A program made the translations under genes and the position numbers. Shown piece by piece: positions 36 to 21,011 of a stretch of DNA of 60,485 bases (position 1 is its first letter; the number at the start of each line of letters is the position of its first letter). This stretch comes from a virus (taxonomy: Duplodnaviria; Heunggongvirae; Uroviricota; Caudoviricetes): the IMG/VR virus record IMGVR_UViG_2671181056_000013, positions 1 through 60,485 of that record. The stretch is one strand, 5' to 3'. The notes beneath the pieces are model-generated. The model saw only the letters and a list, made by a program, of their open reading frames with translations, was not told the DNA's origin and ran no database searches.

Positions 36-497
36 CTAAATCAGTAAGTTGGCAGCATCACCGCCACTTTCCAGTTCTTCCACCCAGGCCTGCGGGACAC
101 TGAAATCGAGACGAAAAACCCCGATATCCCAGGTATAGCTCCCACCCTGAACAAGTTGCTCAAATGTTAAACATTGCTTACCGCTGGCGAAGTTATCGCT
201 ATTAATGCCTAACCGCTTGATAACTTCTCTTGATAAACATGTTTCTTGCGGGTTGTCTTTAACAATAATCTCATATTTCCCGCGCCATTGCTTATTGACA
301 TAAATATCGATGTCATACTGCCCCGGTAAGGGTTGATTATCATCAAGACGAATATTTGCAACCTGCTGGTCTTTCATTCCACCTATCATAAAATGGGTAT
401 CAAAGGTTTCTTCAGCTGCATAAGCTTCAATGCCGAGCAATAACGCTACGATTGCTGATGCAAGTGGGGTCATTCTCAACATAGGCAGCTCCTGCAA
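36..497 (-). CDS. yehB: fimbrial usher, N-terminal 153 codons only (signal peptide plus N-terminal domain); ORF stops 35 nt from window edge
   Basis: Translation has a signal peptide and usher N-terminal-domain-like sequence, and sits directly downstream of the chaperone gene as in chaperone-usher operons. A TAG at 36-38 ends it far short of a full usher. Confidence 0.5.
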   Translation of the reverse strand: MQELPMLRMTPLASAIVALLLGIEAYAAEETFDTHFMIGGMKDQQVANIRLDDNQPLPGQYDIDIYVNKQWRGKYEIIVKDNPQETCLSREVIKRLGINSDNFASGKQCLTFEQLVQGGSYTWDIGVFRLDFSVPQAWVEELESGGDAANLLI

Positions 498-1217
498 TTA
501 AATTTTGTCACTAATATAGTTGCCATGGTCATCGATAATGGTCAGATGCCAGTTATTTGCATTATTACTTTTGACATTAACACTCTGACTTTCTAAGGGG
601 GCAATCATAATAGTTTCATAATTGACTTTGACATTATTAGCTTTGACATCCGAGATCGTCACCCAATTAGCTGAGTCATTTTTTATCACCAAACCATTGC
701 CACTGCGATTTACCAGCAATTTTTTAAATGTCGCTTTATTTACCGGAGCAATACCCGCTGGTCGGTAAAACAACTTAATTCTGTTTTGCATCGCAAACTT
801 CAGTGCATTCTTACCTTCTTGCTCTGGACTATTTGGTGGAATATCCAGAACATTCAGATAAAAAATGCTTTCTTTATTAGTGGGCAGTTTATTCGGCATA
901 ATTTTGATTTTTACTTGCTGCCCGGAATTTGCCCCTATTTTTGCCACTGGTGGCGTTAACATGAAAGGAACCTGAATTTTTTCTGGTGGTAATGACGTAT
1001 CGCCATCATCAATCCACGCCTGCAGCAGCGAAGAACGGTTTCCCTGGTTCATCAACTGCACCATCACTTCTTTATTTTCTGCCGGGTAAATAATGCGCGT
1101 CCCGTAGATAACAATTCCGGCATGTGCAGGAAGGACCATAGAAAAAATGAGTAAAGATAATAATCCTTTCATTTTAATGCCTCTTAAATTAAAAGGCCGC
1201 CATGGGATAGCGGCCAT
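498..1217 (-). CDS. yehC: periplasmic fimbrial chaperone (PapD-like)
   Basis: 239 aa with signal peptide and a PapD/FimC-like N-terminal motif (GIVIYGTRIIYP); lies between subunit and usher genes. Confidence 0.85.
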   Translation of the reverse strand: MAAIPWRPFNLRGIKMKGLLSLLIFSMVLPAHAGIVIYGTRIIYPAENKEVMVQLMNQGNRSSLLQAWIDDGDTSLPPEKIQVPFMLTPPVAKIGANSGQQVKIKIMPNKLPTNKESIFYLNVLDIPPNSPEQEGKNALKFAMQNRIKLFYRPAGIAPVNKATFKKLLVNRSGNGLVIKNDSANWVTISDVKANNVKVNYETIMIAPLESQSVNVKSNNANNWHLTIIDDHGNYISDKI

Positions 1218-1251
1218 GTTTATTACCTGGAGAAACTTACAATTTTATTTA

Positions 1252-1794
1252 TTAATCCTGCGCCACACGCATAACCAGAGAAGATAACACATCACCTGAT
1301 TGCACTGAGTTATCTGTCAGTTTCAGGTATTTTGCTTTAAACGGAATAGCATATTGACCTTCCGCTGTTTTATAACTCTCAATGTTAAAAGGTGCAGAAA
1401 CATCCAGGACATCGCTGTTATCACCTAAATAGAGATAGTAACCCACGGTATCGTTGCTACTGGCTATCGCCTTATCGTTACCGGTTATTTTATCGTTGGT
1501 AATCAACGAGAGTTTTACACCAGCAACTTCTTTCGGGCAGCTAATTTTTAACATGCTGCTGGTTACACCGACTGCATCATCATAGGTAGAATATTTAGCT
1601 TTACCTTCAAAGACAGTGGTTGGTACAGTCGGCATATTAATACTTACTGAATCACCACCCGCTTCGAATTTACACGGAGATTCTGCAATATTCCCCTTAA
1701 TAGTTAATGTTCCGGTATCAACGTCTGCAGCAAATACTCCAGCGCTCATAAAAAAAGAAGAAAAGACAGCGGCAGCAATAATTGAACGTTTCAT
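1252..1794 (-). CDS. yehD: fimbrial major subunit
   Basis: 180 aa with signal peptide and fimbrillin-like sequence; first gene of the operon, AT-rich upstream region. Confidence 0.8.
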   Translation of the reverse strand: MKRSIIAAAVFSSFFMSAGVFAADVDTGTLTIKGNIAESPCKFEAGGDSVSINMPTVPTTVFEGKAKYSTYDDAVGVTSSMLKISCPKEVAGVKLSLITNDKITGNDKAIASSNDTVGYYLYLGDNSDVLDVSAPFNIESYKTAEGQYAIPFKAKYLKLTDNSVQSGDVLSSLVMRVAQD

Positions 1795-2035
1795 AATATG
1801 TTCCTTAATAAAATTTTTTTTGGTTGTTAAGAGTCTGTATCTCTTGGAAACAAATTTCTCACATCAAAAAAGTTACCGCAATGTAAACACATTGTTTTAT
1901 TTATTTGAAACAAATTAACCATTGCAATATAAATACAACAAATATTTAAGAGTATTAACTATTTATCGCATCTATCAATTAATGTAGATTTATGTAAATG
2001 GTATTGTTGATATCAATAAAAATCAGGTTGCCAAA

Positions 2036-2317
2036 TTAATCGTAGCGATTTAACACGATTCGACGTTTGCTATCGCTACCTGCAACAACCACTTCTGTCG
2101 TTACACCTTTGACGGGCGAAGAAAACAGATGACGGGTGTCAACATTATACGTTAACTGACCACAATGCGGTTGAGGTTGACCATTAACCATAGCCATACT
2201 GCATGTTGGGGGACTGATCCTGCCATTAATCGCTAATGTGGCAGTCTCTGAAGAGAATGCGGGAGAAGCCAATCCATAGGCAAGAAAAATAATTCCTGAC
2301 AGCCAATACTTATTCAT
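2036..2317 (-). CDS. yehE: small secreted protein, YehE-like
   Basis: 93 aa ORF with N-terminal signal peptide between the fimbrial operon and mrp, matching the E. coli gene order yehD-yehE-mrp-metG. Confidence 0.6.
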   Translation of the reverse strand: MNKYWLSGIIFLAYGLASPAFSSETATLAINGRISPPTCSMAMVNGQPQPHCGQLTYNVDTRHLFSSPVKGVTTEVVVAGSDSKRRIVLNRYD

Positions 2318-2561
2318 TGAAGGTTATGCCTGGATAGAATGAGTGCATAACAAACTATAGCTGTACATCCACTACACAGCCACGAAGGATGATAATGAAG
2401 CATTGCCTGTATGATCAATCGACTTTGTAGAGTTTCGGACGAAGGTCCGCAGAATATTCGCAGTATTAAATAAGTGTTCATTAATGCGGCAAAAACTAAT
2501 ACACCGCATCAATGTAACATCTCTGCGGTGTATGAAGAATAACCAGAATGGTTAATAGGCG

Positions 2562-3671
2562 TTAGACCGCGCGGAAGGAAATCTCGCCTGGAATGACTTC
2601 ACCCTGCCAGTAGAGCTGAGCTGCAACGCGGTCAGCCAGCTGGCGGTAGATAGCGGTAAATTCGCTCTCCGGACGGCTGATAACCGTTGGCGTGCCTTTA
2701 TCGAGATCCTCACGTAAGGAGATGTGTAACGGCATCTGCCCCAGCAGCTGTGTGTGGTATTTTTCAGCCAGTTTCTCTGCACCACCGGTACCGAAAATCG
2801 GTTCATGGTGACCACAGTTACTGCAAATATGCACACTCATGTTCTCGACAATACCAAGCACCGGAACCTCGACTTTCTCGAACATCACAATGCCTTTTTT
2901 CGCATCGATCAAAGCGATGTCCTGCGGGGTGGTGACCACGACTGCACCAGTTACTGGAATGTTTTGCGCCAGCGTCAATTGAATGTCACCGGTGCCTGGC
3001 GGCATATCAAGCACCAGATAGTCGAGATCCGGCCACAAGGTTTCCTGCAACATCTGCATTAACGCCTTGCTCGCCATCGGTCCACGCCACACCATCGCAT
3101 TGTCGTCAGTGACCAGATAACCAATTGAATTGGTTGCCAGGCCATGAGACATAATCGGTGCCATATGGGTACCGTCCGGCGAAGTTGGACGCTGATTTTC
3201 TGCGCCCAGCATGGTGGGAATTGATGGGCCGTAGATATCGGCGTCCAGAATGCCGACTTTCGCCCCTTCCGCCGCCAGTGCCAGCGCCAGGTTTACCGCC
3301 GTGGAGGATTTACCCACGCCGCCTTTACCGGAACTGACCGCAATGATGTTCTTCACACCATTAATACCCGGCTGATTCTTCACGCGTTTTAAGGTGGCGA
3401 TATTGTGCGACAGTTTCCAGTCGATAGCTTTCGCCCCGGTGATACGCAGCAGTTCGGCGCTACATTGCTCTTTTAACTCTTCAAACGCGCTATGCCAGAC
3501 GAATGGCATAACCAGTTCCACATGCAACGTGTCGTCCATCCAGGCGACATGGTGCAACGCGTTCAGCGTGGTGAGGTTATGCTTCAGGGTTGGGTGCTGA
3601 AAATTGGCCAGTGTCCCGGCGACCATTGCGCGCAAGGCTTCTGGTGATTTGGCCTGGGATTGTTCGTTCAT
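2562..3671 (-). CDS. mrp: Fe-S cluster carrier ATPase Mrp/ApbC, copy 1
   Basis: P-loop GKGGVGKS and CxxC motif. Start set at MNEQSQ (369 aa); the ORF track begins 10 codons further upstream. Confidence 0.9.
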   Translation of the reverse strand: MNEQSQAKSPEALRAMVAGTLANFQHPTLKHNLTTLNALHHVAWMDDTLHVELVMPFVWHSAFEELKEQCSAELLRITGAKAIDWKLSHNIATLKRVKNQPGINGVKNIIAVSSGKGGVGKSSTAVNLALALAAEGAKVGILDADIYGPSIPTMLGAENQRPTSPDGTHMAPIMSHGLATNSIGYLVTDDNAMVWRGPMASKALMQMLQETLWPDLDYLVLDMPPGTGDIQLTLAQNIPVTGAVVVTTPQDIALIDAKKGIVMFEKVEVPVLGIVENMSVHICSNCGHHEPIFGTGGAEKLAEKYHTQLLGQMPLHISLREDLDKGTPTVISRPESEFTAIYRQLADRVAAQLYWQGEVIPGEISFRAV

Positions 3672-3802
3672 CCCGACTCCTTTTTTGTATAGATAAACCA
3701 TCAGCTGATAGTTTACCTGAAGAATATAGAGAAGTACTTACTTAACATTTTCCCATTTGGTACTATCTAACCCCTTTTCACTATTAAGAAGTAATGCCTA
3801 CT

Positions 3803-5221
3803 ATGACTCAAGTCGCGAAGAAAATTCTGGTGACGTGCGCACTGCCGTACGCTAACGGCTCAATCCACCTCGGCCATATGCTGGAGCACATCCAGGCTGA
3901 TGTCTGGGTCCGTTACCAGCGAATGCGCGGCCACGAGGTCAACTTCATCTGCGCCGACGATGCCCACGGTACACCGATCATGCTGAAAGCTCAGCAGCTT
4001 GGTATCACCCCGGAGCAGATGATTGGCGAAATGAGTCAGGAGCATCAGACTGATTTCGCAGGCTTTAACATCAGCTATGACAACTATCACTCGACGCACA
4101 GCGAAGAGAACCGCCAGTTGTCAGAACTTATCTACTCTCGCCTGAAAGAGAACGGTTTTATTAAAAACCGCACCATCTCTCAGCTGTACGATCCGGAAAA
4201 AGGCATGTTCCTGCCGGACCGTTTTGTGAAAGGCACCTGCCCGAAATGTAAATCCCCGGATCAATACGGCGATAACTGCGAAGTCTGCGGCGCGACCTAC
4301 AGCCCGACTGAATTGATCGAGCCGAAATCGGTGGTTTCTGGCGCTACGCCGGTAATGCGTGATTCTGAACACTTCTTCTTTGATCTGCCCTCTTTCAGCG
4401 AAATGTTGCAGGCATGGACCCGCAGCGGTGCGTTGCAGGAGCAGGTGGCAAATAAAATGCAGGAGTGGTTTGAATCCGGCCTGCAACAGTGGGATATCTC
4501 CCGCGACGCGCCATACTTTGGTTTTGAAATTCCGAACGCGCCGGGCAAATATTTCTACGTCTGGCTGGACGCACCGATTGGCTACATGGGTTCTTTCAAG
4601 AATCTGTGCGACAAGCGCAGCGACAGCGTAAGCTTCGATGAATACTGGAAGAAAGACTCCACCGCCGAGCTGTACCACTTCATCGGTAAAGATATTGTTT
4701 ACTTCCACAGCCTGTTCTGGCCTGCCATGCTGGAAGGCAGCAACTTCCGCAAGCCGACCAACCTGTTTGTTCATGGCTATGTGACGGTGAACGGCGCAAA
4801 GATGTCCAAGTCTCGCGGCACCTTTATTAAAGCCAGCACCTGGCTGAATCATTTTGACGCTGACAGCCTGCGTTACTACTACACTGCGAAACTCTCTTCG
4901 CGCATTGATGATATCGATCTCAACCTGGAGGATTTCGTTCAGCGTGTGAATGCCGATATCGTGAACAAAGTGGTTAACCTGGCCTCTCGTAATGCGGGCT
5001 TTATCAACAAGCGTTTTGACGGCGTGCTGGCAAGCGAACTGGCTGACCCGCAGTTGTACAAAACCTTCACTGATGCCGCTGAAGTGATTGGTGAAGCGTG
5101 GGAAAGCCGCGAATTTGGTAAAGCAGTGCGCGAAATCATGGCGCTGGCTGATCTGGCTAACCGCTATGTCGAAGTGGCCTTAAACAATTTGTTTTCTACC
5201 TTTTCTTGTTCGAGAAAATAA
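3803..5221 (+). pseudogene. metG: metG 5' portion (about 456 codons) fused in frame to phage-like sequence, ending after 16 unrelated codons
   Basis: Class I aaRS motif HLGH and KMSKS are present. MetG-like sequence stops at 5172/5173 where the full copy continues ...RYVDEQAPW; here it reads ...[19 protein letters not shown]. Confidence 0.8.
5183..5220 (+). promoter_or_regulatory. about 40-bp phage promoter-like element, copy 1 of 3 (AAACAATTTGTTTTCTACCTTTT...GAGAAAATAA)
   Basis: A 23-nt stretch is identical to 12203-12225 and near-identical to 16091-16113; possible -35 TTGTTT and -10 GAAAAT/GATAAT. Confidence 0.4.
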
Positions 5222-5253
5222 CGTTCCTTTGTCTGGTGCTATGTACCGATCAG

Positions 5254-5300
5254 TTGCACTGAGTGAGCTTCTTTCATGTATACTGTGTAAATGAACAGTA
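5254..5300 (+). promoter_or_regulatory. sigma70-like promoter (TTGCAC ... TATACT) overlapped by a LexA/SOS box TACTGTGTAAATGAACAGTA
   Basis: CTGT-N8-ACAG palindrome at 5281-5300, matching the LexA consensus at 16 of 20 positions by my alignment, about 17 nt upstream of the umuD'-like start. Confidence 0.65.
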
Positions 5301-5316
5301 TTGAGGGCAAAACGCT

Positions 5317-5706
5317 ATGGGCTTCCCTTCTCCTGCGGCGGATTATGCTGAGAGCCGTATTTCTCTTGATCAGCAGATAATTAGACATCCTTCAGCGACC
5401 TACTTCATGAGAGCAGCTGATAGTCATCATCGTGAGGGAATATTACAGGGTGCATTGCTGGTGGTTGATTCCTCACTTACCCCGGTTGATGGTTCTCTGC
5501 TTGTATGCGCTCTGGATGGGGAATATCGCGTAAAAAGATACCGGAAGTCTCCACGTCAGCATCTGGAGGATTTAAGAACCGGTAAGAAGGAAGCATTGCC
5601 AAAGGATGACGATGGATGCACGGGCAGCAATGCCGTGTTTGGTGTGATCACTCACATTATCAACGACGCAAGAAGTGGCGAGTTTGATGATTGTCCTGTG
5701 ATGTAG
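5317..5706 (+). CDS. UmuD'-like S24 peptidase-family protein, natively starting at the position equivalent to UmuD Gly25
   Basis: MGFPSPAADY...HPSATYF...VFGVITHII aligns with E. coli UmuD from the Cys24/Gly25 cleavage site onward. Good RBS GAGGG; in-frame TGA at 5302-5304 excludes a longer N-terminus. Confidence 0.8.
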   Translation: MGFPSPAADYAESRISLDQQIIRHPSATYFMRAADSHHREGILQGALLVVDSSLTPVDGSLLVCALDGEYRVKRYRKSPRQHLEDLRTGKKEALPKDDDGCTGSNAVFGVITHIINDARSGEFDDCPVM

Positions 5707-5718
5707 GAGAACTGATTA

Positions 5719-5745
5719 GGCGGTGCAATGCACCGCCTTTTTATC
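5719..5745 (+). terminator. intrinsic terminator (GGCGGTGCA-A-TGCACCGCC plus T-run)
   Basis: Perfect 9-bp stem followed by TTTTT, placed between the convergent umuD'-like gene and mrp copy B. Confidence 0.6.
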
Positions 5746-6844
5746 ACACTGCGCGGAATGCGATTTCGCCAGGTATTACTTCACCTTGCCAATACATTTG
5801 GGCAGCAACGCGATCTGCGAGGTCACGATAAATAGCCGTAAATTCGCTATCTGGACGACTAATAACGGTTGGTGTTCCGTTATCCAGATCTTCACGAAGA
5901 GAGATATGAAGTGGCATTTGGCCTAACAACTGCGTGTTGTATTTCTCGGCCAGTTTCTGTGCTCCACCGGTGCCAAAAATTGGCTCGTGATGACCGCAGT
6001 TACTGCAAATATGCACACTCATGTTTTCAACGATACCCAGTACCGGCACTTCGACTTTTTCGAACATCACAATGCCTTTCTTCGCATCGATCAGCGCGAT
6101 GTCTTGCGGCGTAGTTACCACAACCGCACCAGTTACAGGAATGTTCTGCGCCAGCGTCAATTGAATATCACCAGTGCCCGGTGGCATATCGAGAACGAGA
6201 TAGTCCAGATCAGGCCACAGTGTTTCCTGCAACATCTGCATCAGCGCCTTGCTCGCCATCGGTCCACGCCACACCATTGCATTGTCATCGGTGACCAGAT
6301 AACCAATAGAGTTGGTTGCCAGGCCATGAGACATGATAGGTGCCATGTGAGTACCGTCCGGTGAGGTTGGACGTTGGTTTTCCGCGCCCAGCATGGTTGG
6401 AATTGATGGACCATAGATATCGGCATCCAAAATACCAACTTTCGCACCTTCAGCAGCCAAAGCCAGTGCCAAGTTTACTGCTGTGGAGGATTTACCCACG
6501 CCGCCCTTGCCTGAGCTGACGGCGATAATGTTCTTAACGCCATTAATGCCTGGTTGGTTTTTGACGCGCTTAAGCGTGGCAATGTTGTACGACAGCTTCC
6601 AGTCAATAGCCTTTGCGCCAGTGATACGGAGCAGATCACCACTACATTGCTCTTTCAGGTCTTCAAAAGGCTTATTCCACACGAAAGGCATGATTAGTTC
6701 GACATGCAGTGTGTCATCCATCAACGCAACATGGTGTAACGCTTTAAGCGTAGTCAAGTTGTGTTTCAGGGTTGGGTGCTGAAAATTAGCCAGCGTACCG
6801 GCTACCATTGCTCTCAGGGCATCCGGCGATTTGGACTCGCTCAT
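5744..6844 (-). CDS. mrp: Mrp/ApbC, divergent copy B
   Basis: 366 aa with the same motifs as copy 1, but many synonymous and some non-synonymous differences; its flanking non-coding DNA is unrelated to copy 1. Confidence 0.85.
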   Translation of the reverse strand: MSESKSPDALRAMVAGTLANFQHPTLKHNLTTLKALHHVALMDDTLHVELIMPFVWNKPFEDLKEQCSGDLLRITGAKAIDWKLSYNIATLKRVKNQPGINGVKNIIAVSSGKGGVGKSSTAVNLALALAAEGAKVGILDADIYGPSIPTMLGAENQRPTSPDGTHMAPIMSHGLATNSIGYLVTDDNAMVWRGPMASKALMQMLQETLWPDLDYLVLDMPPGTGDIQLTLAQNIPVTGAVVVTTPQDIALIDAKKGIVMFEKVEVPVLGIVENMSVHICSNCGHHEPIFGTGGAQKLAEKYNTQLLGQMPLHISLREDLDNGTPTVISRPDSEFTAIYRDLADRVAAQMYWQGEVIPGEIAFRAV

Positions 6845-7001
6845 CCCGTCTCCTTTATTTTAATTTGCGCAATTGTCGCCTTGTAGTGTACTCCAGCTAC
6901 GACATTTAATCATTTATGAGAAATGCTGTTATCACATGGCAGACATAAGGCCATTTTGTTACTATCAAGCCCCTTTTCACTACAAAGAAGTAATGCCTAC
7001 T

Positions 7002-8837
7002 ATGACCCAAGTCGCGAAGAAAATTCTGGTGACGTGCGCGCTGCCGTACGCTAACGGCTCAATCCACCTCGGCCATATGCTGGAGCACATCCAGGCTGAT
7101 GTCTGGGTTCGTTACCAGCGAATGCGCGGCCACGAGGTTAATTTCATCTGTGCCGACGATGCCCACGGTACGCCAATCATGCTGAAAGCACAGCAGCTTG
7201 GTATCACACCGGAACAGATGATTGGCGAAATGAGTCAGGAACATCAGACTGATTTCGCAGGCTTTAACATCAGCTATGACAACTATCACTCGACGCACAG
7301 CGAAGAGAACCGTCAGTTGTCCGAGCTTATCTACTCTCGCCTGAAAGAAAACGGTTTTATTAAAAACCGCACCATCTCACAGCTGTACGATCCGGAAAAA
7401 TGCATGTTCCTGCCGGACCGTTTTGTAAAAGGCACCTGCCCGAAATGTAAATCCCCGGATCAATACGGCGATAACTGCGAAGTCTGCGGCGCGACCTACA
7501 GCCCGACTGAACTGATCGAGCCGAAATCGGTGGTTTCTGGCGCTACGCCGGTAATGCGTGATTCTGAACACTTCTTCTTTGATCTGCCCTCTTTCAGCGA
7601 AATGTTGCAGGCATGGACCCGCAGCGGTGCGTTGCAGGAGCAGGTGGCAAATAAAATGCAGGAGTGGTTTGAATCCGGCCTGCAACAGTGGGATATCTCC
7701 CGCGACGCGCCATACTTTGGTTTTGAAATTCCGAACGCGCCGGGCAAATATTTCTACGTCTGGCTGGACGCACCGATTGGCTACATGGGTTCTTTCAAGA
7801 ATCTGTGCGACAAGCGCAGCGACAGCGTAAGCTTCGATGAATACTGGAAGAAAGACTCCACCGCCGAGCTGTACCACTTCATCGGTAAAGATATTGTTTA
7901 CTTCCACAGCCTGTTCTGGCCTGCCATGCTGGAAGGCAGCAACTTCCGCAAGCCGACCAACCTGTTTGTTCATGGCTATGTGACGGTGAACGGCGCAAAG
8001 ATGTCCAAGTCTCGCGGCACCTTTATTAAAGCCAGCACCTGGCTGAATCATTTTGACGCTGACAGCCTGCGTTACTACTACACTGCGAAACTCTCTTCGC
8101 GCATTGATGATATCGATCTCAACCTGGAGGATTTCGTTCAGCGTGTGAATGCCGATATCGTGAACAAAGTGGTTAACCTGGCCTCTCGTAATGCGGGCTT
8201 TATCAACAAGCGTTTTGACGGCGTGCTGGCAAGCGAACTGGCTGACCCGCAGTTGTACAAAACCTTCACTGATGCCGCTGAAGTGATTGGTGAAGCGTGG
8301 GAAAGCCGCGAATTTGGTAAAGCAGTGCGCGAAATCATGGCGCTGGCTGATCTGGCTAACCGCTATGTCGACGAGCAGGCTCCGTGGGTGGTGGCAAAAC
8401 AGGAAGGCCGCGATGCCGACCTGCAGGCAATTTGCTCAATGGGCATAAACCTGTTCCGCGTGCTGATGACTTACCTGAAGCCGGTACTGCCGAAACTGAC
8501 CGAGCGCGCAGAAGCATTCCTCAATACAGAACTGACCTGGGATGGTATCCAGCAACCGCTGCTGGGCCACAAAGTGAATCCGTTCAAAGCGCTGTATAAC
8601 CGCATCGATATGAAGCAGGTTGAAGCACTGGTGGAAGCGTCTAAAGAAGAAGTGAAAGCAGCTGCCGCGCCAGTTACTGGCCCACTGGCAGATGATCCGA
8701 TTCAGGAAACCATCACCTTTGACGACTTCGCAAAAGTTGACCTGCGCGTGGCGCTGATCGAAAACGCAGAGTTTGTTGAAGGTTCTGACAAACTGCTGCG
8801 CCTGATGCGGTGTATGAAGAATAACCAGAATGGTTAA
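7002..8837 (+). CDS. metG: methionyl-tRNA synthetase copy B, truncated after about codon 601 and read through into 10 junction codons
   Basis: Near-identical to the other metG copies except scattered SNPs. Junction at 8805/8806 joins metG to sequence equal to 2524 onward. The ORF-track N-terminal extension (6873-6992) is treated as artefact. Confidence 0.8.
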
Positions 8838-8843
8838 TAGGCG

Positions 8844-9953
8844 TTAGACCGCGCGGAAGGAAATCTCGCCTGGAATGACTTCACCCTGCCAGTAGAGCTG
8901 AGCTGCAACGCGGTCAGCCAGCTGGCGGTAGATAGCGGTAAATTCGCTCTCCGGACGGCTGATAACCGTTGGCGTGCCTTTATCGAGATCCTCACGTAAG
9001 GAGATGTGTAACGGCATCTGCCCCAGCAGCTGTGTGTGGTATTTTTCAGCCAGTTTCTCTGCACCACCGGTACCGAAAATCGGTTCATGGTGACCACAGT
9101 TACTGCAAATATGCACACTCATGTTCTCGACAATACCAAGCACCGGAACCTCGACTTTCTCGAACATCACAATGCCTTTTTTCGCATCGATCAAAGCGAT
9201 GTCCTGCGGGGTGGTGACCACGACTGCACCAGTTACTGGAATGTTTTGCGCCAGCGTCAATTGAATGTCACCGGTGCCTGGCGGCATATCAAGCACCAGA
9301 TAGTCGAGATCCGGCCACAAGGTTTCCTGCAACATCTGCATTAACGCCTTGCTCGCCATCGGTCCACGCCACACCATCGCATTGTCGTCAGTGACCAGAT
9401 AACCAATTGAATTGGTTGCCAGGCCATGAGACATAATCGGTGCCATATGGGTACCGTCCGGCGAAGTTGGACGCTGATTTTCTGCGCCCAGCATGGTGGG
9501 AATTGATGGGCCGTAGATATCGGCGTCCAGAATGCCGACTTTCGCCCCTTCCGCCGCCAGTGCCAGCGCCAGGTTTACCGCCGTGGAGGATTTACCCACG
9601 CCGCCTTTACCGGAACTGACCGCAATGATGTTCTTCACACCATTAATACCCGGCTGATTCTTCACGCGTTTTAAGGTGGCGATATTGTGCGACAGTTTCC
9701 AGTCGATAGCTTTCGCCCCGGTGATACGCAGCAGTTCGGCGCTACATTGCTCTTTTAACTCTTCAAACGCGCTATGCCAGACGAATGGCATAACCAGTTC
9801 CACATGCAACGTGTCGTCCATCCAGGCGACATGGTGCAACGCGTTCAGCGTGGTGAGGTTATGCTTCAGGGTTGGGTGCTGAAAATTGGCCAGTGTCCCG
9901 GCGACCATTGCGCGCAAGGCTTCTGGTGATTTGGCCTGGGATTGTTCGTTCAT
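8844..9953 (-). CDS. mrp: Mrp/ApbC, copy 2 (identical to copy 1)
   Basis: Translation is identical to 2562-3701; the DNA repeat runs from 8806, offset 6282 from copy 1. Confidence 0.9.
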   Translation of the reverse strand: MNEQSQAKSPEALRAMVAGTLANFQHPTLKHNLTTLNALHHVAWMDDTLHVELVMPFVWHSAFEELKEQCSAELLRITGAKAIDWKLSHNIATLKRVKNQPGINGVKNIIAVSSGKGGVGKSSTAVNLALALAAEGAKVGILDADIYGPSIPTMLGAENQRPTSPDGTHMAPIMSHGLATNSIGYLVTDDNAMVWRGPMASKALMQMLQETLWPDLDYLVLDMPPGTGDIQLTLAQNIPVTGAVVVTTPQDIALIDAKKGIVMFEKVEVPVLGIVENMSVHICSNCGHHEPIFGTGGAEKLAEKYHTQLLGQMPLHISLREDLDKGTPTVISRPESEFTAIYRQLADRVAAQLYWQGEVIPGEISFRAV

Positions 9954-10084
9954 CCCGACTCCTTTTTTGTATAGATAAACCATCAGCTGATAGTTTACCT
10001 GAAGAATATAGAGAAGTACTTACTTAACATTTTCCCATTTGGTACTATCTAACCCCTTTTCACTATTAAGAAGTAATGCCTACT

Positions 10085-12118
10085 ATGACTCAAGTCGCGA
10101 AGAAAATTCTGGTGACGTGCGCACTGCCGTACGCTAACGGCTCAATCCACCTCGGCCATATGCTGGAGCACATCCAGGCTGATGTCTGGGTCCGTTACCA
10201 GCGAATGCGCGGCCACGAGGTCAACTTCATCTGCGCCGACGATGCCCACGGTACACCGATCATGCTGAAAGCTCAGCAGCTTGGTATCACCCCGGAGCAG
10301 ATGATTGGCGAAATGAGTCAGGAGCATCAGACTGATTTCGCAGGCTTTAACATCAGCTATGACAACTATCACTCGACGCACAGCGAAGAGAACCGCCAGT
10401 TGTCAGAACTTATCTACTCTCGCCTGAAAGAGAACGGTTTTATTAAAAACCGCACCATCTCTCAGCTGTACGATCCGGAAAAAGGCATGTTCCTGCCGGA
10501 CCGTTTTGTGAAAGGCACCTGCCCGAAATGTAAATCCCCGGATCAATACGGCGATAACTGCGAAGTCTGCGGCGCGACCTACAGCCCGACTGAATTGATC
10601 GAGCCGAAATCGGTGGTTTCTGGCGCTACGCCGGTAATGCGTGATTCTGAACACTTCTTCTTTGATCTGCCCTCTTTCAGCGAAATGTTGCAGGCATGGA
10701 CCCGCAGCGGTGCGTTGCAGGAGCAGGTGGCAAATAAAATGCAGGAGTGGTTTGAATCCGGCCTGCAACAGTGGGATATCTCCCGCGACGCGCCATACTT
10801 TGGTTTTGAAATTCCGAACGCGCCGGGCAAATATTTCTACGTCTGGCTGGACGCACCGATTGGCTACATGGGTTCTTTCAAGAATCTGTGCGACAAGCGC
10901 AGCGACAGCGTAAGCTTCGATGAATACTGGAAGAAAGACTCCACCGCCGAGCTGTACCACTTCATCGGTAAAGATATTGTTTACTTCCACAGCCTGTTCT
11001 GGCCTGCCATGCTGGAAGGCAGCAACTTCCGCAAGCCGACCAACCTGTTTGTTCATGGCTATGTGACGGTGAACGGCGCAAAGATGTCCAAGTCTCGCGG
11101 CACCTTTATTAAAGCCAGCACCTGGCTGAATCATTTTGACGCTGACAGCCTGCGTTACTACTACACTGCGAAACTCTCTTCGCGCATTGATGATATCGAT
11201 CTCAACCTGGAGGATTTCGTTCAGCGTGTGAATGCCGATATCGTGAACAAAGTGGTTAACCTGGCCTCTCGTAATGCGGGCTTTATCAACAAGCGTTTTG
11301 ACGGCGTGCTGACAAGCGAACTGGCTGACCCGCAACTGTACAAAACCTTTACTGATGCCGCTGAAGTGATTGGCGAAGCATGGGAAAGCCGCGAATTTGG
11401 TAAAGCTATCCGTGAAATCATGGCATTGGCTGACCTGGCTAATCGCTATGTCGATGAACAGGCTCCGTGGGTGGTGGCGAAGCAGGAAGGTCGCGATGCA
11501 GATCTGCAGGCGATTTGCTCTATGGGCATTAACCTGTTCCGCGTGCTGATGACGTACCTGAAACCGGTACTGCCGAAACTGACTGAACGTGCAGAAGCAT
11601 TCCTGAATACAGAACTGACCTGGGATGGTATCCAGCAACCGCTTCTGGGCCATAAAGTGAATCCGTTCAAGGCACTGTATAACCGTATCGATATGAAACA
11701 GGTGGAAGCACTGGTGGAAGCATCCAAAGAAGAAGTGAAAGCCACAGCTGCACCGGTAACTGGCCCACTGGCTGACGAACCGATTCAGGAAACCATCACC
11801 TTTGACGACTTCGCCAAAGTTGACCTGCGTGTGGCGCTGATTGAAAACGCGGAGTTTGTCGAAGGTTCTGACAAACTGCTTCGCCTGACGCTGGATCTCG
11901 GTGGTGAAAAGCGTAATGTCTTCTCAGGCATCCGTTCCGCTTATCCAGATCCACAGGCACTGATTGGTCGTCACACCATTATGGTGGCTAACCTGGCACC
12001 ACGTAAAATGCGCTTCGGTATCTCTGAAGGCATGGTGATGGCTGCCGGTCCTGGCGGGAAAGATATCTTCCTGTTAAGCCCGGATGCTGGTGCTAAACCT
12101 GGCCACCAGGTTAAGTAA
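10085..12118 (+). CDS. metG: methionyl-tRNA synthetase, full length (677 aa)
   Basis: Complete ORF including the C-terminal tRNA-binding domain. The 3' third differs at many sites from copies 1 and B. Confidence 0.9.
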
Positions 12119-12140
12119 TTAAACAACCTCTCTTCGCAAT

Positions 12141-12166
12141 GCCCGGCAACACGCCGGGCATTTTCA
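12141..12166 (+). terminator. intrinsic terminator of metG (GCCCGGC-AACAC-GCCGGGC plus T-run)
   Basis: 7-bp GC stem followed by ATTTTC, 23 nt after the metG stop. Confidence 0.7.
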
Positions 12167-12201
12167 TATAGACACAATCCCTCCTGATTTACACAAGCCC
12201 T

Positions 12202-12240
12202 AAAACAATTTGTTTTCTACCTTTTGTTGATTGAGATAAT
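12202..12240 (+). promoter_or_regulatory. about 40-bp phage promoter-like element, copy 2 of 3; apparent left edge of the phage region
   Basis: Same 23-mer as at 5183; sits between the metG terminator and the first phage-like gene. Confidence 0.4.
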
Positions 12241-12279
12241 AAGCCACATAAGAAAACAACTTGTTTTGGAGTAGTTGAA

Positions 12280-12579
12280 ATGTTGAACATTACCCAAGCC
12301 TACCAGGTGGCATTGATCAGTTCATCTCATACATCAGAGGAAGATGCTCGCCGATTCATGATCGCAAGCAATGAGCTGGATTGGGTTTCACAAATTGAGT
12401 ACGGTTGCATTGTCCACGCCGGGTTACAGGACGATGACTGGAAAGATGAGTTGCGTCGATATGGTATATCCGAGGGTGCGATTGCGAACATTCAGAAAGT
12501 ACTTGATGTAGGCTTTAACTCTGTACATTTTGATTGTGGCGCACCGGTCGTTGAAGGGCTTGAGTGCTGGCAATGGTAA
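12280..12579 (+). CDS. hypothetical early protein (99 aa)
   Basis: ORF with GGAG RBS, preceded by the GAAAACAAnTTGTTTTC palindrome. Confidence 0.55.
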   Translation: MLNITQAYQVALISSSHTSEEDARRFMIASNELDWVSQIEYGCIVHAGLQDDDWKDELRRYGISEGAIANIQKVLDVGFNSVHFDCGAPVVEGLECWQW

Positions 12580-12615
12580 TCCGGCAATCGCTTCATACTA
12601 GATAACGGAGAATTT

Positions 12616-12801
12616 ATGCTTAAAGAAGACTCATATCTACTAAAGGCGCTTGAAATGAGTGGCGTTGAACCTACAGTGAAAAACGCTCACGATATCTACC
12701 TTCAGTTTTCGACAGAGCTGAAACAGCTCATAAATAAATATGGAGTGAACGACTCCAGCGTCAAAGCCATGATAGATGATGAATTAGACCATCTCATCTA
12801 A
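12616..12801 (+). CDS. hypothetical small protein (61 aa)
   Basis: ORF with RBS-like GGAGAA upstream. Confidence 0.45.
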   Translation: MLKEDSYLLKALEMSGVEPTVKNAHDIYLQFSTELKQLINKYGVNDSSVKAMIDDELDHLI

Positions 12802-12899
12802 TCAAACCGTTGATAATGGCGGTCACAATTTGATTCTTTTCTATAAGAACCCGTTGATCGCCACTACTACCCTCCCATACCAGCAATCACATCATTAAA

Positions 12900-13700
12900 T
12901 ATCAATAGGTTATGGTTGTTTATACCAATAAGAAAACAACTAAATAACAGATCAACGAAACATCAACGCTTTCTCCCGATTTGGTCTAAAAAATTGACGT
13001 TATCACACATCACTTCTTATACCCGTAATTCTACGCAGCAGATAGCGCCACAGCGTCCAAATTTCACCACAGACGACTCAACACACTACCAACAAAAACA
13101 CACGCTCAAAATCGCTCCCGTTGCGTTACACAACCATATAAACAACTTATTTTCAGGCATAACAAAACAACCAAATAACACATATGCCATTACCCAAAAC
13201 AACCAACCTCTTTATGGCAGGCTACCGAAAAGACCCACCTCTTCTCCCCAGGCTACCGGACAACCAACCTAACTTTCACAGGCAATCCGAAAACATTCAT
13301 ACGCGCGATACCCACGACACGCCATTACCCAAACAGCGAAGAAACACCTGAACCGCTGAAACCCTAACGAAGCCTGTAACCGCAAGGTTTCTCTCAATCC
13401 CAAAAGACACGAAACATAACAATCACGGGAAACGCCATTACCCAATACACGAATAACTACAAAAGCCTTCACACACTCCAGACAAACAACTCAAACACAA
13501 TAACGAAAGCAATCGCCCACCTGCCATTACTCCATACACGGAGAAGAACAATCACCAAAACGACGAGAACACCCCCATAGAAGAACCACCGCAAAACTAA
13601 CGAAACCACATACACCGACAGAGAAAACAACACACCCAATTCACCAACAGAAATAGTCGCCGTATAGAACATTCTGGAAGGAGTGAGCATTAACGCCTAT
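12900..13700. repeat. G-poor, CA-rich non-coding tract with dispersed GCCATTACCCA and CAGGCTACCG...CCCACCT repeats
   Basis: Top strand is almost devoid of G for about 800 bp. Four GCCATTAC(C/T)C copies near 13186, 13321, 13433, 13523; two CAGGCTACCG copies at 13217-13273. The only ORF translates to low-complexity sequence. Confidence 0.6.
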
Positions 13701-13854
13701 AGAGAGGTTGAGACAGATAAAACACAACATGTATAGCGAAGAAGCCAGGTATGTATAAGTGGAGAGGGAAGGAGGGGGGTCGCCTCCTTTTTCGTATTTA
13801 TTCAACTCCTGATTTTATCCCCCGTAACACCCCCTACGGTCAGCCTTCGGTCCA

Positions 13855-13992
13855 TACAGGGAAAAGGTTGCATCCAGCTACAGAAACGGCTGGGTTGCCT
13901 TCGGGGGAACGGCTGGGGATTTTCAGGGAAACGGTCGAGTTGCCTGTGTGGATTTCGGGAAAAGGCTCGATGCCGGTTCTGGAACGGCGGCG
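13855..13992. repeat. iteron-like direct repeats (GGGAAAMGG family, about 6 copies at 21-32 bp spacing), set 1
   Basis: CAGGGAAAAGG, CAGAAACGGC, CGGGGGAACGGC, CAGGGAAACGG, TCGGGAAAAGGC, CTGGAACGGCGG in series; no convincing ORF. Confidence 0.55.
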
Positions 13993-14370
13993 TACCGGTA
14001 TAGCGAGAGAGAGAGTTGCAGCTACCCACCTGTAATGTGCGGGAAGAAGAGAGGCGCTCACGTGCAGGCTGACTTGCTTACCGCTGGATTCCCTCTGAAT
14101 GCCAGATACAGCGTAATTGTGCCAGACAGCCAGCGGGTCACAATCGATTTCAGTAGGTTTTCGGGGAGAGGATTATTCTACCCACCAGCCCCGCGGCGCG
14201 CGTAGAGCAGAATATCGTAAATACTGGCTCTCGTGTCGTTCCCGGATATTCACTGCCCAGCCTGGCTTTCCCGACATAAAATCCTTTTTCGCCTTTATCT
14301 TATTGCGATAATAACACCAACAAGTAAACAGCATATTTAGACGTTATAGAAACGAAGTGAGGATGAAGAG

Positions 14371-14589
14371 ATGATTAAGATGCCTGTGACGGTTGAGGTG
14401 TGGGGCGTGGATTCCCTGGCTGAGTGTCTGGATGCAGTGGGGCCGGAGTTGTACCGCAAGTTGTGGTCGTTCGTCCCGGCAGAAGGGGAATCGCCCAAAG
14501 GGAAGGATATCTGGCACCTGCTGAGTGAAGATGAAAAGCGGGAGCTGGTGGGCGCGGTACACAGCGAGTTCCCGGACGACCAAGATTAA
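14371..14589 (+). CDS. hypothetical acidic small protein (72 aa)
   Basis: ORF with GAGGA RBS, followed by a terminator. Confidence 0.5.
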   Translation: MIKMPVTVEVWGVDSLAECLDAVGPELYRKLWSFVPAEGESPKGKDIWHLLSEDEKRELVGAVHSEFPDDQD

Positions 14590-14595
14590 GAGTGA

Positions 14596-14618
14596 GGCCA
14601 CCAGCACGGTGGCTTTTG
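14596..14618 (+). terminator. intrinsic terminator (GCCACC-AGCAC-GGTGGC plus TTTT)
   Basis: Hairpin plus T-run immediately after the stop at 14589. Confidence 0.6.
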
Positions 14619-14727
14619 TCGCTATTAACCTCGGGGCAGCGCAGCACCGTAACGATATACTTTGTGGCCGTTTTCTTACTGGTATTGTTTACGTAATTCA
14701 GAAAACAACATGTTTAAGGATTGCTTT

Positions 14728-15057
14728 ATGTTTGCAAATATCGACATCAACCAAATTAAGAAATTGACTCAAAAAGAGTTTGACCAGTTTTATGAGCTGG
14801 AAGGTTGGTCTTCCACTCTGATTAATTCAAGATGGGTGCTGGAGCTGATGACTCGTGATGACGCACCTGCTTTGATGATTTGCGACATGGGTGAAGATGC
14901 TGACTTTATGGATATGAGCGAATTTTGTGTGGACACATACAACCGCAGCCAGAAGTACTACTTCACATGCGATAGCGAAAATGACGTGATTTCTAAGGTC
15001 TATCTTCACCTCGTCCAGCATTGGGACGTTCAGGACTTCCTTGCGATATTCGCGTAA
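14728..15057 (+). CDS. hypothetical early protein (about 110 aa)
   Basis: Start chosen at the ATG after an AAGGA RBS, downstream of the palindromic motif at 14701; the ORF track begins at 14662. Confidence 0.55.
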   Translation: MFANIDINQIKKLTQKEFDQFYELEGWSSTLINSRWVLELMTRDDAPALMICDMGEDADFMDMSEFCVDTYNRSQKYYFTCDSENDVISKVYLHLVQHWDVQDFLAIFA

Positions 15058-15211
15058 GCCCAACCAAAGCCAGCATTGCTGGCTTAACTTCATCTGTAGC
15101 CGCAGGGAAGAACCTGCATATCGCTCATGCGCCTGATCAATATGCTTTGTAGCCGTTTTCTTACTGGTATTATTTACGCCATTGAGAAAACAAGTTGTTT
15201 ACGGAGTTGTG

Positions 15212-15523
15212 ATGAAAAAATCATTGGTTCTTGGTCTGGACAAAGACCAGAAGAGAAAAGAGAAGCCTGCACTGGTTGCTCAATTAACTTTGCTGGACAT
15301 CGTTGCCAATGGAACCTCTATTCGTCTGTTCCGTGAAACAGCGGTGTCTTTCGATAAAAACACCTTTACTCGTTATGTAATGAATGTTCGTCGCCAGCGT
15401 GGAAAAGGCTGGATGGCATTTCAAAGAATGTGGCCGGAACATCAGCTCGAACTGGCTTTGATGGAAGTTAACCGCGTGGCCCAGCAAGAGATTCAGAGAG
15501 CATCAGTGATGGCAATAGCCTGA
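15212..15523 (+). CDS. hypothetical early protein (about 104 aa)
   Basis: ATG after a GGAG RBS; the 55-bp upstream block is shared with the 14660-14715 region. Confidence 0.55.
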   Translation: MKKSLVLGLDKDQKRKEKPALVAQLTLLDIVANGTSIRLFRETAVSFDKNTFTRYVMNVRRQRGKGWMAFQRMWPEHQLELALMEVNRVAQQEIQRASVMAIA

Positions 15524-15559
15524 TAATGTGCAAGTGGTAATTAGTCGACAGTACGACAG

Positions 15560-15585
15560 CCCCGCCATCCTTACGGGGTTTTTTG
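15560..15585 (+). terminator. intrinsic terminator (CCCCG...CGGGG plus T6)
   Basis: GC hairpin followed by TTTTTT. Confidence 0.7.
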
Positions 15586-15636
15586 TATTGTAAGTACATA
15601 CCTATGTCTATAAAATAGAAAAATAACCAAGACACT

Positions 15637-16044
15637 ATGGAGAGTGATATGAGCGTTAAACGAGAAAACCTGACAGTTGATGTCTACTATGCTTCAGAAA
15701 GCGCCGAAGGTAAGAATGTAGCTAAAATCACCGTCGTTACGTACAACACCGAAACTGGAACTGAAGTTCAGGCAAGTACTATTGTGCGTAAAGGAGATAC
15801 ATCAGGCGGGGAATATGAGGCGCAATATCAGTCCATTTTTGATGCAACGGACCCGTTGTTGTTGAAAATTGAAAGTTACTTCCGTAAGGTGAATAAAGAG
15901 GTGTTTGAAACCATGATGAATATGGTTAACACCGTATTCGCTTCCAGTCTGAACACTAACACTACCTGGATTGGTCAGTATGGTCTGCGCATTACCTCCG
16001 GCATTCCTGCTGACACCTTAATCCCTGAAAGCGTATTCGCTTAA
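15637..16044 (+). CDS. hypothetical early protein (135 aa)
   Basis: ORF with its own upstream AT-rich region and downstream terminator. Confidence 0.6.
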   Translation: MESDMSVKRENLTVDVYYASESAEGKNVAKITVVTYNTETGTEVQASTIVRKGDTSGGEYEAQYQSIFDATDPLLLKIESYFRKVNKEVFETMMNMVNTVFASSLNTNTTWIGQYGLRITSGIPADTLIPESVFA

Positions 16045-16056
16045 TCCTCTTTGAAT

Positions 16057-16080
16057 GGCGCGTAAACCGCGCCATTTTCT
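16057..16080 (+). terminator. intrinsic terminator (GGCGCG-TAAAC-CGCGCC plus T-run)
   Basis: Hairpin and ATTTTCT directly after the stop. Confidence 0.65.
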
Positions 16081-16090
16081 TATGCCCGAT

Positions 16091-16130
16091 AACAATTTGT
16101 TTTCTGCCTTATCTGATTTGTGAAAATGCT
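16091..16130 (+). promoter_or_regulatory. about 40-bp phage promoter-like element, copy 3 of 3
   Basis: AACAATTTGTTTTCTGCCTTATCTGATTTGTGAAAAT is closely similar to the elements at 5183 and 12203. Confidence 0.4.
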
Positions 16131-16162
16131 TTCACTGAAAGCAACTTGATAAGGAAACCATC

Positions 16163-16537
16163 ATGGGACTTGATATCTACATTGAGACGCAACCAAAAAA
16201 CGATCTGAATAACGATGCATCCAGAAAGAAGGTTGCTTACTTCCGTAAGTTCAATGCTCTCTTTGGGTGGATGGAACGCAACGTAGGTGAAGTCAAAAAT
16301 TGTGAGCTTTTAGAATTAACGATGAATGACATTTGTGCTCTGAAAGCTCATTTGATGCACATGAACGAAAGTAACTGCGAAGAGTACTTACCTACCTGTG
16401 AAGGTTTTTTCTTCGGCAGTCAGGAGTACGATGAAGGGTACTGGCATGACGTGGGGGAGTTGAAAAAACTTGTGGAAGAGCTGATTAAGAACCACGACTT
16501 TCACAATAACAGACTGACCTTCTGCGCCTGGTGGTAA
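16163..16537 (+). CDS. hypothetical early protein (124 aa, Cys-rich)
   Basis: ORF with AAGGAAA RBS. Confidence 0.6.
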   Translation: MGLDIYIETQPKNDLNNDASRKKVAYFRKFNALFGWMERNVGEVKNCELLELTMNDICALKAHLMHMNESNCEEYLPTCEGFFFGSQEYDEGYWHDVGELKKLVEELIKNHDFHNNRLTFCAWW

Positions 16538-16539
16538 AT

Positions 16540-16683
16540 ATGGGCGATTTCAAGAAACGCCTGAAGGAAAGAGCCGAGATAGTCAGAAAGCAAAACGCCT
16601 CTTCTGTCATCAGATACGCAAGGCAGTTTAGTCGCAACAACAAATCAGTTGAGGAAAAGATCCTTAGCGTAATCGGTCGATAA
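16540..16683 (+). CDS. hypothetical small basic protein (47 aa), possibly translationally coupled
   Basis: ATG 3 nt after the preceding stop; followed by hairpin AAGGCCACCACTGCTGGTGGCCTT. Not in the ORF track (below its size cut-off). Confidence 0.35.
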   Translation: MGDFKKRLKERAEIVRKQNASSVIRYARQFSRNNKSVEEKILSVIGR

Positions 16684-16732
16684 TTATTAAGGCCACCACT
16701 GCTGGTGGCCTTAAATGACCATCCTGTTTCCC

Positions 16733-16805
16733 GCAGGCTAAAAACACCAACCTCTTACCTCCAGGCAACCGACAAACCCACCTGTTCCCGTCCGGCTACC
16801 GCAAC
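16733..16805. repeat. second cluster of CAGGCTACCG...CCCACCT-family repeats
   Basis: GCAGGCTAAAAACACCAACCTC, CCAGGCAACCGACAAACCCACCTG and CCGGCTACCGCAAC resemble the repeats at 13217-13273. Confidence 0.45.
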
Positions 16806-16887
16806 TTTCCACTTTGACGCCTTATTCGTACAACGATAATTAACGCCAACAAGAAAACAATTTGTTATTTACGATAAGGAATTAATC

Positions 16888-17370: not shown

Positions 17371-17379
17371 CTGAGAAGA

Positions 17380-17402
17380 GGGCCAGTAACGGCCCTTTCT
17401 CT
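17380..17402 (+). terminator. intrinsic terminator (GGGCC-AGTAAC-GGCCC plus T-run)
   Basis: Hairpin and TTTCTCT 10 nt after the stop. Confidence 0.65.
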
Positions 17403-17417
17403 ATAGCCACCAGATGC

Positions 17418-18216: not shown

Positions 18217-18236
18217 GATTAAGCTCCTTAAAAAAA

Positions 18237-18440: not shown

Positions 18441-18489
18441 TTTTTAAAGCTCCTTTAAAGCGCCCATAGTGGGCGCTTGATTCCATTAA

Positions 18490-21009: not shown

Positions 21010-21011
21010 AA

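Follow-up and report, generated by a model that had tools for sequence, protein, structure and literature searches.

Why should one of three copies of a gene pair carry an apbC (mrp) gene that is strongly diverged from its counterparts, next to a metG gene that appears nearly identical to them? The locus that raises this question lies at the left end of IMG/VR virus record IMGVR_UViG_2671181056_000013, and the window considered here (the whole stretch of DNA that was analysed, 60,485 bp) is the entire draft contig CXFJ01000012.1 of assembly GCA_001255095.1, not a slice of a finished genome. Its first 12 kb contain three apbC-metG units, referred to as copy 1 (2524–5172), copy B (5748–8805) and copy 3 (8806–12118). 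The account favoured here, which as a whole is judged likely, is that copy B represents a cargo module belonging to a family of SSU5-group phage-plasmids, that the boundary between its diverged and chromosome-like parts is ancestral to that family, and that the array of three copies is probably an artefact of assembly.

The transition itself is sharp. When copy B is compared with copy 1 in windows of 100 nucleotides (nt), identity lies between 73 and 93% across apbC, falls to 50–53% in the core of the intergenic region and rises to 92–100% from about position 6987 onwards. A max-chi-square analysis places the change point after 6984, with a difference rate of 0.217 to its left and 0.014 to its right (chi2 = 274; the largest value among 2000 permutations was 21, p<0.0005). 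The last dense difference is found at 6954, and between there and the metG start codon only positions 6959, 6967, 6969, 6983 and 6984 differ. A preliminary description of this DNA had the strong divergence of mrp copy B and the intergenic DNA from copy 1 ending about 35 bp before the metG start codon, which is accurate, since the ATG occupies 7002–7004 and the sequence CCCCTTTTCACTA begins at 6970; the sliding-window identity plot that it proposed as a check gives the step just described. Alignment of the intergenic regions has the chromosome-like part starting at a shared TACTAT box and metG leader, with the part upstream of the box unalignable and interrupted by 14-nt and 10-nt insertions or deletions. 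The TACTAT box is an alignment observation only, and consensus promoter and terminator scans of both intergenic regions found nothing. The boundary is placed in the last ~50 nt of the intergenic region. As for the outer ends of the pair, chromosome similarity stops exactly at the stop codon of metG and, on the other side, ~4 nt inside the stop of apbC. A second significant step between copy B and copy 1 lies inside metG, after 7427, where the differences drop from 4.3% to 0.1%.

The step is not due to constraint, because the contrast persists at synonymous sites. A closed plasmid from Shigella sonnei, identical to copy B through 7675, was compared with an Escherichia coli chromosome, which gave a synonymous divergence (dS) of 1.50 for apbC, with a non-synonymous divergence (dN) of 0.032. 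For metG of the same pair dS is 0.17 over nt 1–600, 0.12 over nt 601–1230 and 0.54 over nt 1231–2031. Uniform divergence across mrp and metG, the pattern that would have spoken against a breakpoint, was therefore not seen, and with a gap in dS of about 9–12-fold the apbC and metG genes of copy B have different evolutionary histories.

Copy B is not peculiar to this contig. Window positions 5174–7675 align with the closed S. sonnei plasmid NZ_CP045933.1 with zero mismatches, and positions 5174–7010 are 100% identical to two more closed S. sonnei plasmids (LR213459.1 and NZ_CP053753.1), and some 170 non-mobilizable E. coli plasmids, 106–113 kb in size, match them at 98–99%. The S. sonnei plasmids that match copy B are closed and about 108 kb in size; members of the family overall are ~107–113 kb and non-mobilizable, and their closed relatives are circular. 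The similarity extends to the remainder of the window, as positions 21540–60455 are 100.000% identical to NZ_CP045933.1 (0 mismatches in 38,916 bases) and positions 10035–22092 are 99.6% identical, with differences in metG and the intergenic DNA roughly accounting for the mismatches. NZ_CP045933.1 (replicon type rep_cluster_488) is annotated with terminase, portal, capsid, tape measure and tail fibre genes together with ParB-like, DnaB-like helicase and primase genes. The window's element therefore carries SSU5-type virion and packaging genes, with a match for the terminase large subunit besides the annotated structural genes, and plasmid-type replication and partition genes reside on the same element, going by the annotation of this reference over the region of identity. 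The element's terminase matches that of Salmonella phage SSU5 at 96.9% identity and that of Escherichia phage Cyrano at 99.5%. In the matching plasmids a gene for an S24 family peptidase (HumD), apbC and a full-length metG adjoin one another, so that an auxiliary metG is carried beside the plasmid-type apbC (hereafter apbC_P), and copies B and 3 bear alleles of this gene. The same cargo module also occurs in Escherichia phages CMS-2020a, Cyrano and PhiR41_1.

These identities mark copy B as the cargo module (humD-apbC-metG) of an SSU5-group phage-plasmid like the one known from S. sonnei as pWPMR2. The literature (PMC12452169; bioRxiv 10.1101/2025.09.12.675607) describes SSU5-group phage-plasmids as common in S. 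sonnei, where they are called pWPMR2-like, and as carrying an extra, highly variable metG that is linked to antimicrobial survival. The source given in both for pWPMR2 is Tam et al. (medRxiv 10.1101/2024.10.27.24316207). The link of the present element to pWPMR2 depends on the description of the clade K members among the SSU5-group plasmids of S. sonnei as identical or close to pWPMR2. The notion that copy B is a chromosomal paralogue that recombined in this genome has to be abandoned, given that 5174–7675 is base-for-base identical to a closed S. sonnei plasmid.

The history of the boundary becomes apparent once the plasmid family is considered as a whole. Twelve plasmid-type modules, with S. 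sonnei, E. coli, E. albertii and E. marmotae among their sources, were set against the apbC-metG regions of 11 chromosomes, drawn from Escherichia species, Citrobacter and Salmonella. The same divergence step is present in 12/12 modules, and across the intergenic region the mean best identity to any chromosome rises from 77.8% to 96.9%. In the apbC and intergenic windows the nearest relative of a module is always another plasmid and never a chromosome, with mean plasmid-plasmid identity of 96–99.8%; the best chromosome identity there averages 78–90% (77–90% overall). From the metG start onwards the best chromosome identity is 95–98.5%, plasmid-plasmid identity falls to 93–98% and up to 7 of 12 metG windows have a chromosome as the nearest relative, although these counts are inflated in the 3' windows, as three of the twelve modules derive from junction contigs with a chromosomal 3' part of metG. 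The best chromosomal match for the plasmid metG shifts between Escherichia species from window to window, and some patches are 100% identical to E. coli chromosomes. Among the plasmids dS is 0.06–0.18 for apbC and 0.10–0.43 for metG. The apbC dN is 0 in all but one of four comparisons, the exception being 0.001, and the ApbC_P protein (WP_000004356.1) is identical in five annotated plasmids from four host species, with MetG differing. This invariance despite a dS of 0.06–0.18 implies very strong purifying selection on the plasmid-borne iron–sulphur (Fe-S) carrier.

Because the step is found in every module, the splice is best read as ancestral to the plasmid family and not as a local event. 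Moreover, the first ~15 informative sites of metG (nt 6–324) are mostly plasmid-type in every module, which suggests that the left boundary probably goes back to a single event in the clade's ancestor, and later exchange would have affected mainly the middle and 3' parts of the gene. The preliminary description had seen in copy B a foreign mrp spliced to an E. coli-like metG within a few tens of bp. Much of this stands, in that the two genes have distinct histories, the boundary between them is narrow and apbC_P is at most 83.3% identical to that of any species representative; what does not stand is that the splice was made in this genome, since the step is shared by the whole family and the 'foreign mrp' is plasmid cargo. 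Its statement that metG copy B is nearly identical to the other copies applies downstream of the step, but part of that likeness comes from a switch of copy B to chromosomal alleles at 7512–7676. The genuine S. sonnei plasmid metG is E. coli-like over nt 1–1230 (96–98%) and more distant over nt 1231–2034 (about 91% over the last 800 nt), where its identity is ~91–92% with all Escherichia species and 85% with Citrobacter.

The donor of apbC_P was sought in a scan of one genome per species in GTDB (80 loci), as the preliminary description had proposed, and no donor lineage could be identified among these species representatives, the best DNA identity being 83.3%. The gene is about equally far from Escherichia and Citrobacter (81–83% at the DNA level), and its protein is 94–95% identical to those of Escherichia, Citrobacter and one of the two Salmonella representatives. 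For the intergenic region the best chromosomal matches are from Citrobacter, at 77–79%. By sequence comparison, apbC_P is foreign to E. coli. An mrp-metG pair of ~68% identity was also noticed in records of Pseudomonas phage Y5 (OQ572407.1) and Acinetobacter phage MD-2021a (CAKLQF020000011.1 and CAKLQH020000007.1), where it may represent an independent capture or host DNA inside prophage calls.

The step, the contrast at synonymous sites, the identity of copy B to closed plasmids and the mosaic metG beside an invariant apbC are direct observations, and the simplest history for them would be the old capture of a native divergent pair, followed by replacement of metG and then by patchy exchange. 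In such a history the divergently oriented apbC and metG genes would have been taken long ago from an enterobacterial chromosome, and apbC and most of the intergenic DNA would retain that deep divergence. In the ancestor of the Escherichia/Shigella plasmids an Escherichia allele would then have replaced the region from about 47 nt upstream of metG through to its stop codon. Homologous recombination (gene conversion) with the host chromosomal metG would since then have gone on replacing the plasmid gene patch by patch, chiefly in the middle and towards the 3' end. To the left, the intergenic DNA and apbC would be too diverged for pairing, and with exchange blocked on the left the intergenic step would persist as a fixed, family-wide boundary.

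Two other histories would dispense with a replacement inside a captured pair. One holds that the pair was captured only once and never recombined, the step arising from stronger constraint on metG or from faster evolution of the plasmid apbC. The order and orientation of the genes do match the chromosomal pair, and both genes are under purifying selection (dN/dS ~0.01–0.02), but a 9–12-fold gap in dS (1.5 against 0.12–0.17) between adjacent genes of one replicon is not what such a history would give: in chromosomal comparisons of E. coli with Citrobacter or Salmonella, the apbC dS is only 1.2–2.5 times that of the metG segments. It would also leave the internal mosaic of metG, with its patches fully identical to E. 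coli chromosomes, without a cause. Three hallmarks of a recombination mosaic, namely a significant change point, a contrast at synonymous sites and nearest relatives that are specific to each segment, are found here, and a history free of recombination is extremely improbable. The other proposal, that apbC came from a distant enterobacterium and metG from Escherichia in two independent captures that happened to land side by side, agrees with the different apparent ages of the two genes and with the fact that no donor holds both of them. Against it, the native divergent layout has been kept, with an intergenic region of similar length (157 versus 131 nt), and both ends of that region, comprising the apbC start with its ribosome-binding site and the metG TACTAT box with its leader, align with the chromosome. 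As chromosome similarity ends at or within a few nt of the two stop codons, replacement within a captured pair is the simpler explanation, and two separate captures are considered very improbable.

The arrangement of the three copies within the contig presents a separate problem, for which the layout of the window is required. The features are as follows, with positions and strand.

1–62, no strand assigned: terminal 62 nt of an insertion sequence (IS), IS1, at the left contig end; 100% match to the end of the annotated IS1A in E. coli PK-F-10122.
63–2523, reverse strand: chromosomal yehB'-yehC-yehD-yehE segment, 98.5–99.4% identical to E. coli chromosomes, where the yeh genes are annotated.
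2562–3671, reverse strand: chromosomal apbC (mrp), copy 1; gene call of 369 amino acids (aa), 98% to Shigella/E. coli apbC and 100% to copy 3.
3803–5172, forward strand: metG copy 1, nt 1–1370 only, with chromosomal alleles throughout; the frame continues to a stop at 5221 and the gene is cut at junction J_A.
5172–5174, no strand assigned: junction J_A, consisting of metG nt 1370, an orphan A (5173) and then plasmid DNA upstream of humD.
5317–5706, forward strand: humD-like S24 peptidase gene of the plasmid, annotated as S24 family peptidase/HumD in closed plasmids (Pfam Peptidase_S24).
5744–6844, reverse strand: plasmid-type apbC (apbC_P, 366 aa; the 'mrp copy B' of the preliminary description), 100% identical to closed S. 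sonnei plasmids.
6845–7001, no strand assigned: plasmid-type apbC-metG intergenic region, with the step at ~6955–6984, at the start of the shared TACTAT box and metG leader.
7002–8805, forward strand: metG copy B, nt 1–1804, with plasmid and then chromosomal alleles; the frame continues to a stop at 8837.
8805–8806, no strand assigned: junction J_B, where metG nt 1804 is joined to the yehE-apbC spacer.
8844–9953, reverse strand: chromosomal apbC, copy 3, identical to copy 1.
10085–12118, forward strand: full-length metG, copy 3, with chromosomal and then plasmid alleles.
12119–60455, forward strand: SSU5-group phage-plasmid backbone, with helicase, ParB-like genes, terminase, portal, capsid, tape measure, tail fibre, DnaB and part of a primase gene.
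60456–60485, no strand assigned: end of a second IS at the right contig end, where the window departs from the plasmid reference at 60456.

The last of these segments, 60456–60485, is presumably an IS2-like terminal repeat. The IS1 end at the left of the contig is inserted in yehB, and the IS at the right is inserted in the plasmid primase region, an insertion that is absent from the closed reference plasmid.

A total of 115 sites separate the closed S. sonnei plasmid allele of metG from the chromosomal allele, and these allow the three copies to be typed. The truncated gene of copy 1 is chromosomal at all 50 of its informative sites. Copy B is plasmid-type through nt 511 (7512) and chromosomal-type from nt 675 (7676), and copy 3 is chromosomal-type through nt 1194 (11278) and plasmid-type from nt 1228 (11312), after which it leads into the plasmid backbone. 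Copies 1 and 3 are 100% identical through ~4938/11220, a distance of ~2.4 kb, and overall copy B is ~89% identical to either of them. If the copies are real, copy 1 is predicted to encode MetG residues 1–456 followed by 16 further residues and copy B residues 1–601 followed by 10; copy 3 would give the sole full-length product, which differs at 2 residues from the MetG of the closed plasmid. Exact look-ups of the two truncated open reading frames gave no match, a result that is uninformative on uniqueness as the index also misses the window's own contig.

The tandem order of copy 1, copy B and copy 3 is probably an artefact of assembly or scaffolding. The contig is bounded by IS elements, and on this ground its source is almost certainly a short-read assembly; it contains perfect repeats of 2.4 kb, which short reads cannot place in order; and its junctions are unique to this assembly. 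Both J_A and J_B are non-homologous, with 0–2 nt of microhomology and one orphan base. A search of 5,426 complete E. coli genomes turned up no place that covers 80% or more of either junction query, and J_A is absent from the best PLSDB matches, all of which begin at 5174. A plasmid joined to the chromosome at metG was found in 0/5,426 of the same genomes, though the module is plasmid-borne in about 200 of them. For a genuine chromosomal triplication one would look to independent assemblies, and the junctions were not reproduced there. The most probable origin is that a short-read assembly threaded chromosome and plasmid through their common metG sequence to give a false tandem array, and the inner switch of copy B to chromosomal alleles may, like the array, be a product of assembly. 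Two other draft assemblies (L089 and L090) contain a plain path from yeh through chromosomal apbC and metG to the plasmid, without the array and with the same 677-aa product, and in these the change from chromosomal to plasmid alleles falls at nt 996–1128 as against 1194–1228 in copy 3.

Several observations nevertheless weigh against parts of the favoured account, and most of them bear on the alternative that the array is real. On that alternative the phage-plasmid would have integrated into the chromosomal metG by homologous recombination, leaving copies B and 3 as hybrids, and two illegitimate joins or hairpin template switches would have produced three copies with one intact metG. Copies B and 3 do look reciprocal, with both being chromosomal-type over nt 675–1194, as a crossover with heteroduplex repair predicts. 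The 16 plasmid-specific alleles of this interval, which are present in all closed S. sonnei plasmids, occur in no copy in the window, and no closed plasmid has a chromosomal-type middle, so a plain chimera of intact replicons fits worse than a genuinely recombined pair of metG genes. The switch in copy 3 falls within a 34-nt shared stretch, which means that a de Bruijn graph could change path there only at a k of 33 or less. Several draft contigs of 370–570 kb from other samples contain the reciprocal plasmid-metG-chromosome junction, in which humD, apbC_P and metG are followed by chromosomal DUF4132 genes, so that real integration by homologous recombination may occur. The acceptors of the two junctions (5174 and 8806), moreover, each fall exactly where the distal arm of a perfect inverted repeat begins, with arms of 8 and 10 bp respectively: the plasmid side of J_A begins at the distal arm of AAGGCCAC-tagtt-GTGGCCTT and the J_B acceptor at that of ATACACCGCA-n15-TGCGGTGTAT, the contexts having been read in reference L001 at 11985–12008 and in the window at 2499–2533. 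Positions with this property make up 0.12–0.17% of the sequence, giving a joint chance of ~2e-6, and the coincidence may stem from a hairpin-linked break in sequencing or assembly, or from genuine template switching at hairpins. A further point concerns the module's history and not the array, in that the ancient capture is inferred only from a saturated dS, because no donor of apbC_P was found. Set against the integration scenario are the IS-bounded ends of the draft contig with its unorderable identical segments, the absence of its junctions from the complete genomes and top plasmid matches, and the need for copy 1 to contain the 5' part of a third, unrecombined chromosomal-type metG, implying a long history. 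A real array is accordingly considered unlikely. The wider proposition that the S. sonnei isolate underwent real metG recombination to give hybrid methionyl-transfer RNA synthetase (MetRS) genes and a hairpin-switched array, and that phage-plasmids and chromosomes in general continually exchange this essential tRNA synthetase gene up to a promoter-region homology barrier on its left, is doubtful.

Two further origins of the allele pattern were considered and set aside. A hypothetical plasmid allele with a plasmid-type 5' part, a chromosomal-type middle and a plasmid-type 3' part, which would make the contig a simple chimera, is found in no PLSDB record (best match 99.3%). Velvet-style bubble popping, as the cause of the chromosomal-type middle of all copies, was rejected by reasoning only, as the isolated nt 511 site is kept in two forms. 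Separately, the intact module with plasmid genes on both sides is observed inside the Mb-scale chromosomal records VCZV01000001.1 (4.9 Mb, L092) and CP043541.1 (5.6 Mb, L096), where the phage-plasmid may be integrated elsewhere or the assemblies may be mis-joined.

In the E. marmotae plasmid NZ_CP072690.1 (L085, 1776–3248) a copy of the essential GTPase gene der stands beside apbC_P where the other plasmids have humD, so that a further housekeeping gene has been captured at this site. A 23-nt motif, AAACAATTTGTTTTCTACCTTTT, is found at window positions 5182–5204, 12203–12225 and 16090–16112, and in reference L001 at 6889, 12009, 15947 and 19834. It is always on one strand, intergenic and upstream of plasmid genes, with zero occurrences expected by chance, and is probably a promoter or operator element of the phage-plasmid. 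A 44-nt direct repeat at 5178–5221 and 12199–12242 was entertained as a boundary of the module and rejected, since the motif recurs upstream of other plasmid genes.

The feature belongs to an already described mobile element, and whilst the original observation is correct the evolutionary detail added here is modest. Its clinical relevance comes from the phage-plasmid-borne metG, which has been tied to antimicrobial survival in epidemic S. sonnei in work cited in PMC12452169. What is added is that the plasmid apbC and metG differ greatly in age, that on its left side the chromosome-like sequence has a fixed limit a short way upstream of metG, common to the whole plasmid clade, and that it is metG and not apbC that keeps exchanging sequence with host chromosomes. 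If true, plasmid-chromosome exchange of this kind could be a source of the 'highly variable' metG alleles that are associated with antimicrobial survival. The locus also carries a warning, as sequence shared between plasmid and chromosome lets draft assemblies join replicons and can create false gene arrays, and single-nucleotide polymorphism (SNP) calls in the chromosomal metG are contaminated likewise.

In terms of known systems, the patchwork of chromosomal metG alleles and the hybrid genes that switch within shared sequence resemble concerted evolution or gene conversion between plasmid and chromosomal copies of a housekeeping gene, and the cointegrates of high-frequency-of-recombination (Hfr) and F-prime type; as a difference from the latter, integration of this element at metG is seen in none of the complete E. 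coli genomes. The element is most readily compared with pWPMR2 and the related SSU5-supergroup phage-plasmids of S. sonnei and E. coli, with which it shares a size of ~108 kb, SSU5-like structural genes and an auxiliary variable metG. In contrast to these closed relatives, the element in the window is joined to the chromosome and is accompanied by extra apbC and metG copies. Escherichia phages Cyrano (the LF82 phage-plasmid), CMS-2020a and PhiR41_1 have the same humD-apbC-metG module at 95–100% identity and a terminase at 99.5–100%, but their metG alleles are mosaic and 3–5% different, and each of them is recorded as a free phage or plasmid genome. The structural and replication backbone is the same in Salmonella phage SSU5, and presumably in pHCM2, as the terminase identity to SSU5 illustrates, yet the SSU5 record contains no match to the apbC-metG module, and the apbC-metG cargo appears, from these comparisons, to be specific to the Escherichia/Shigella clade of these phage-plasmids.

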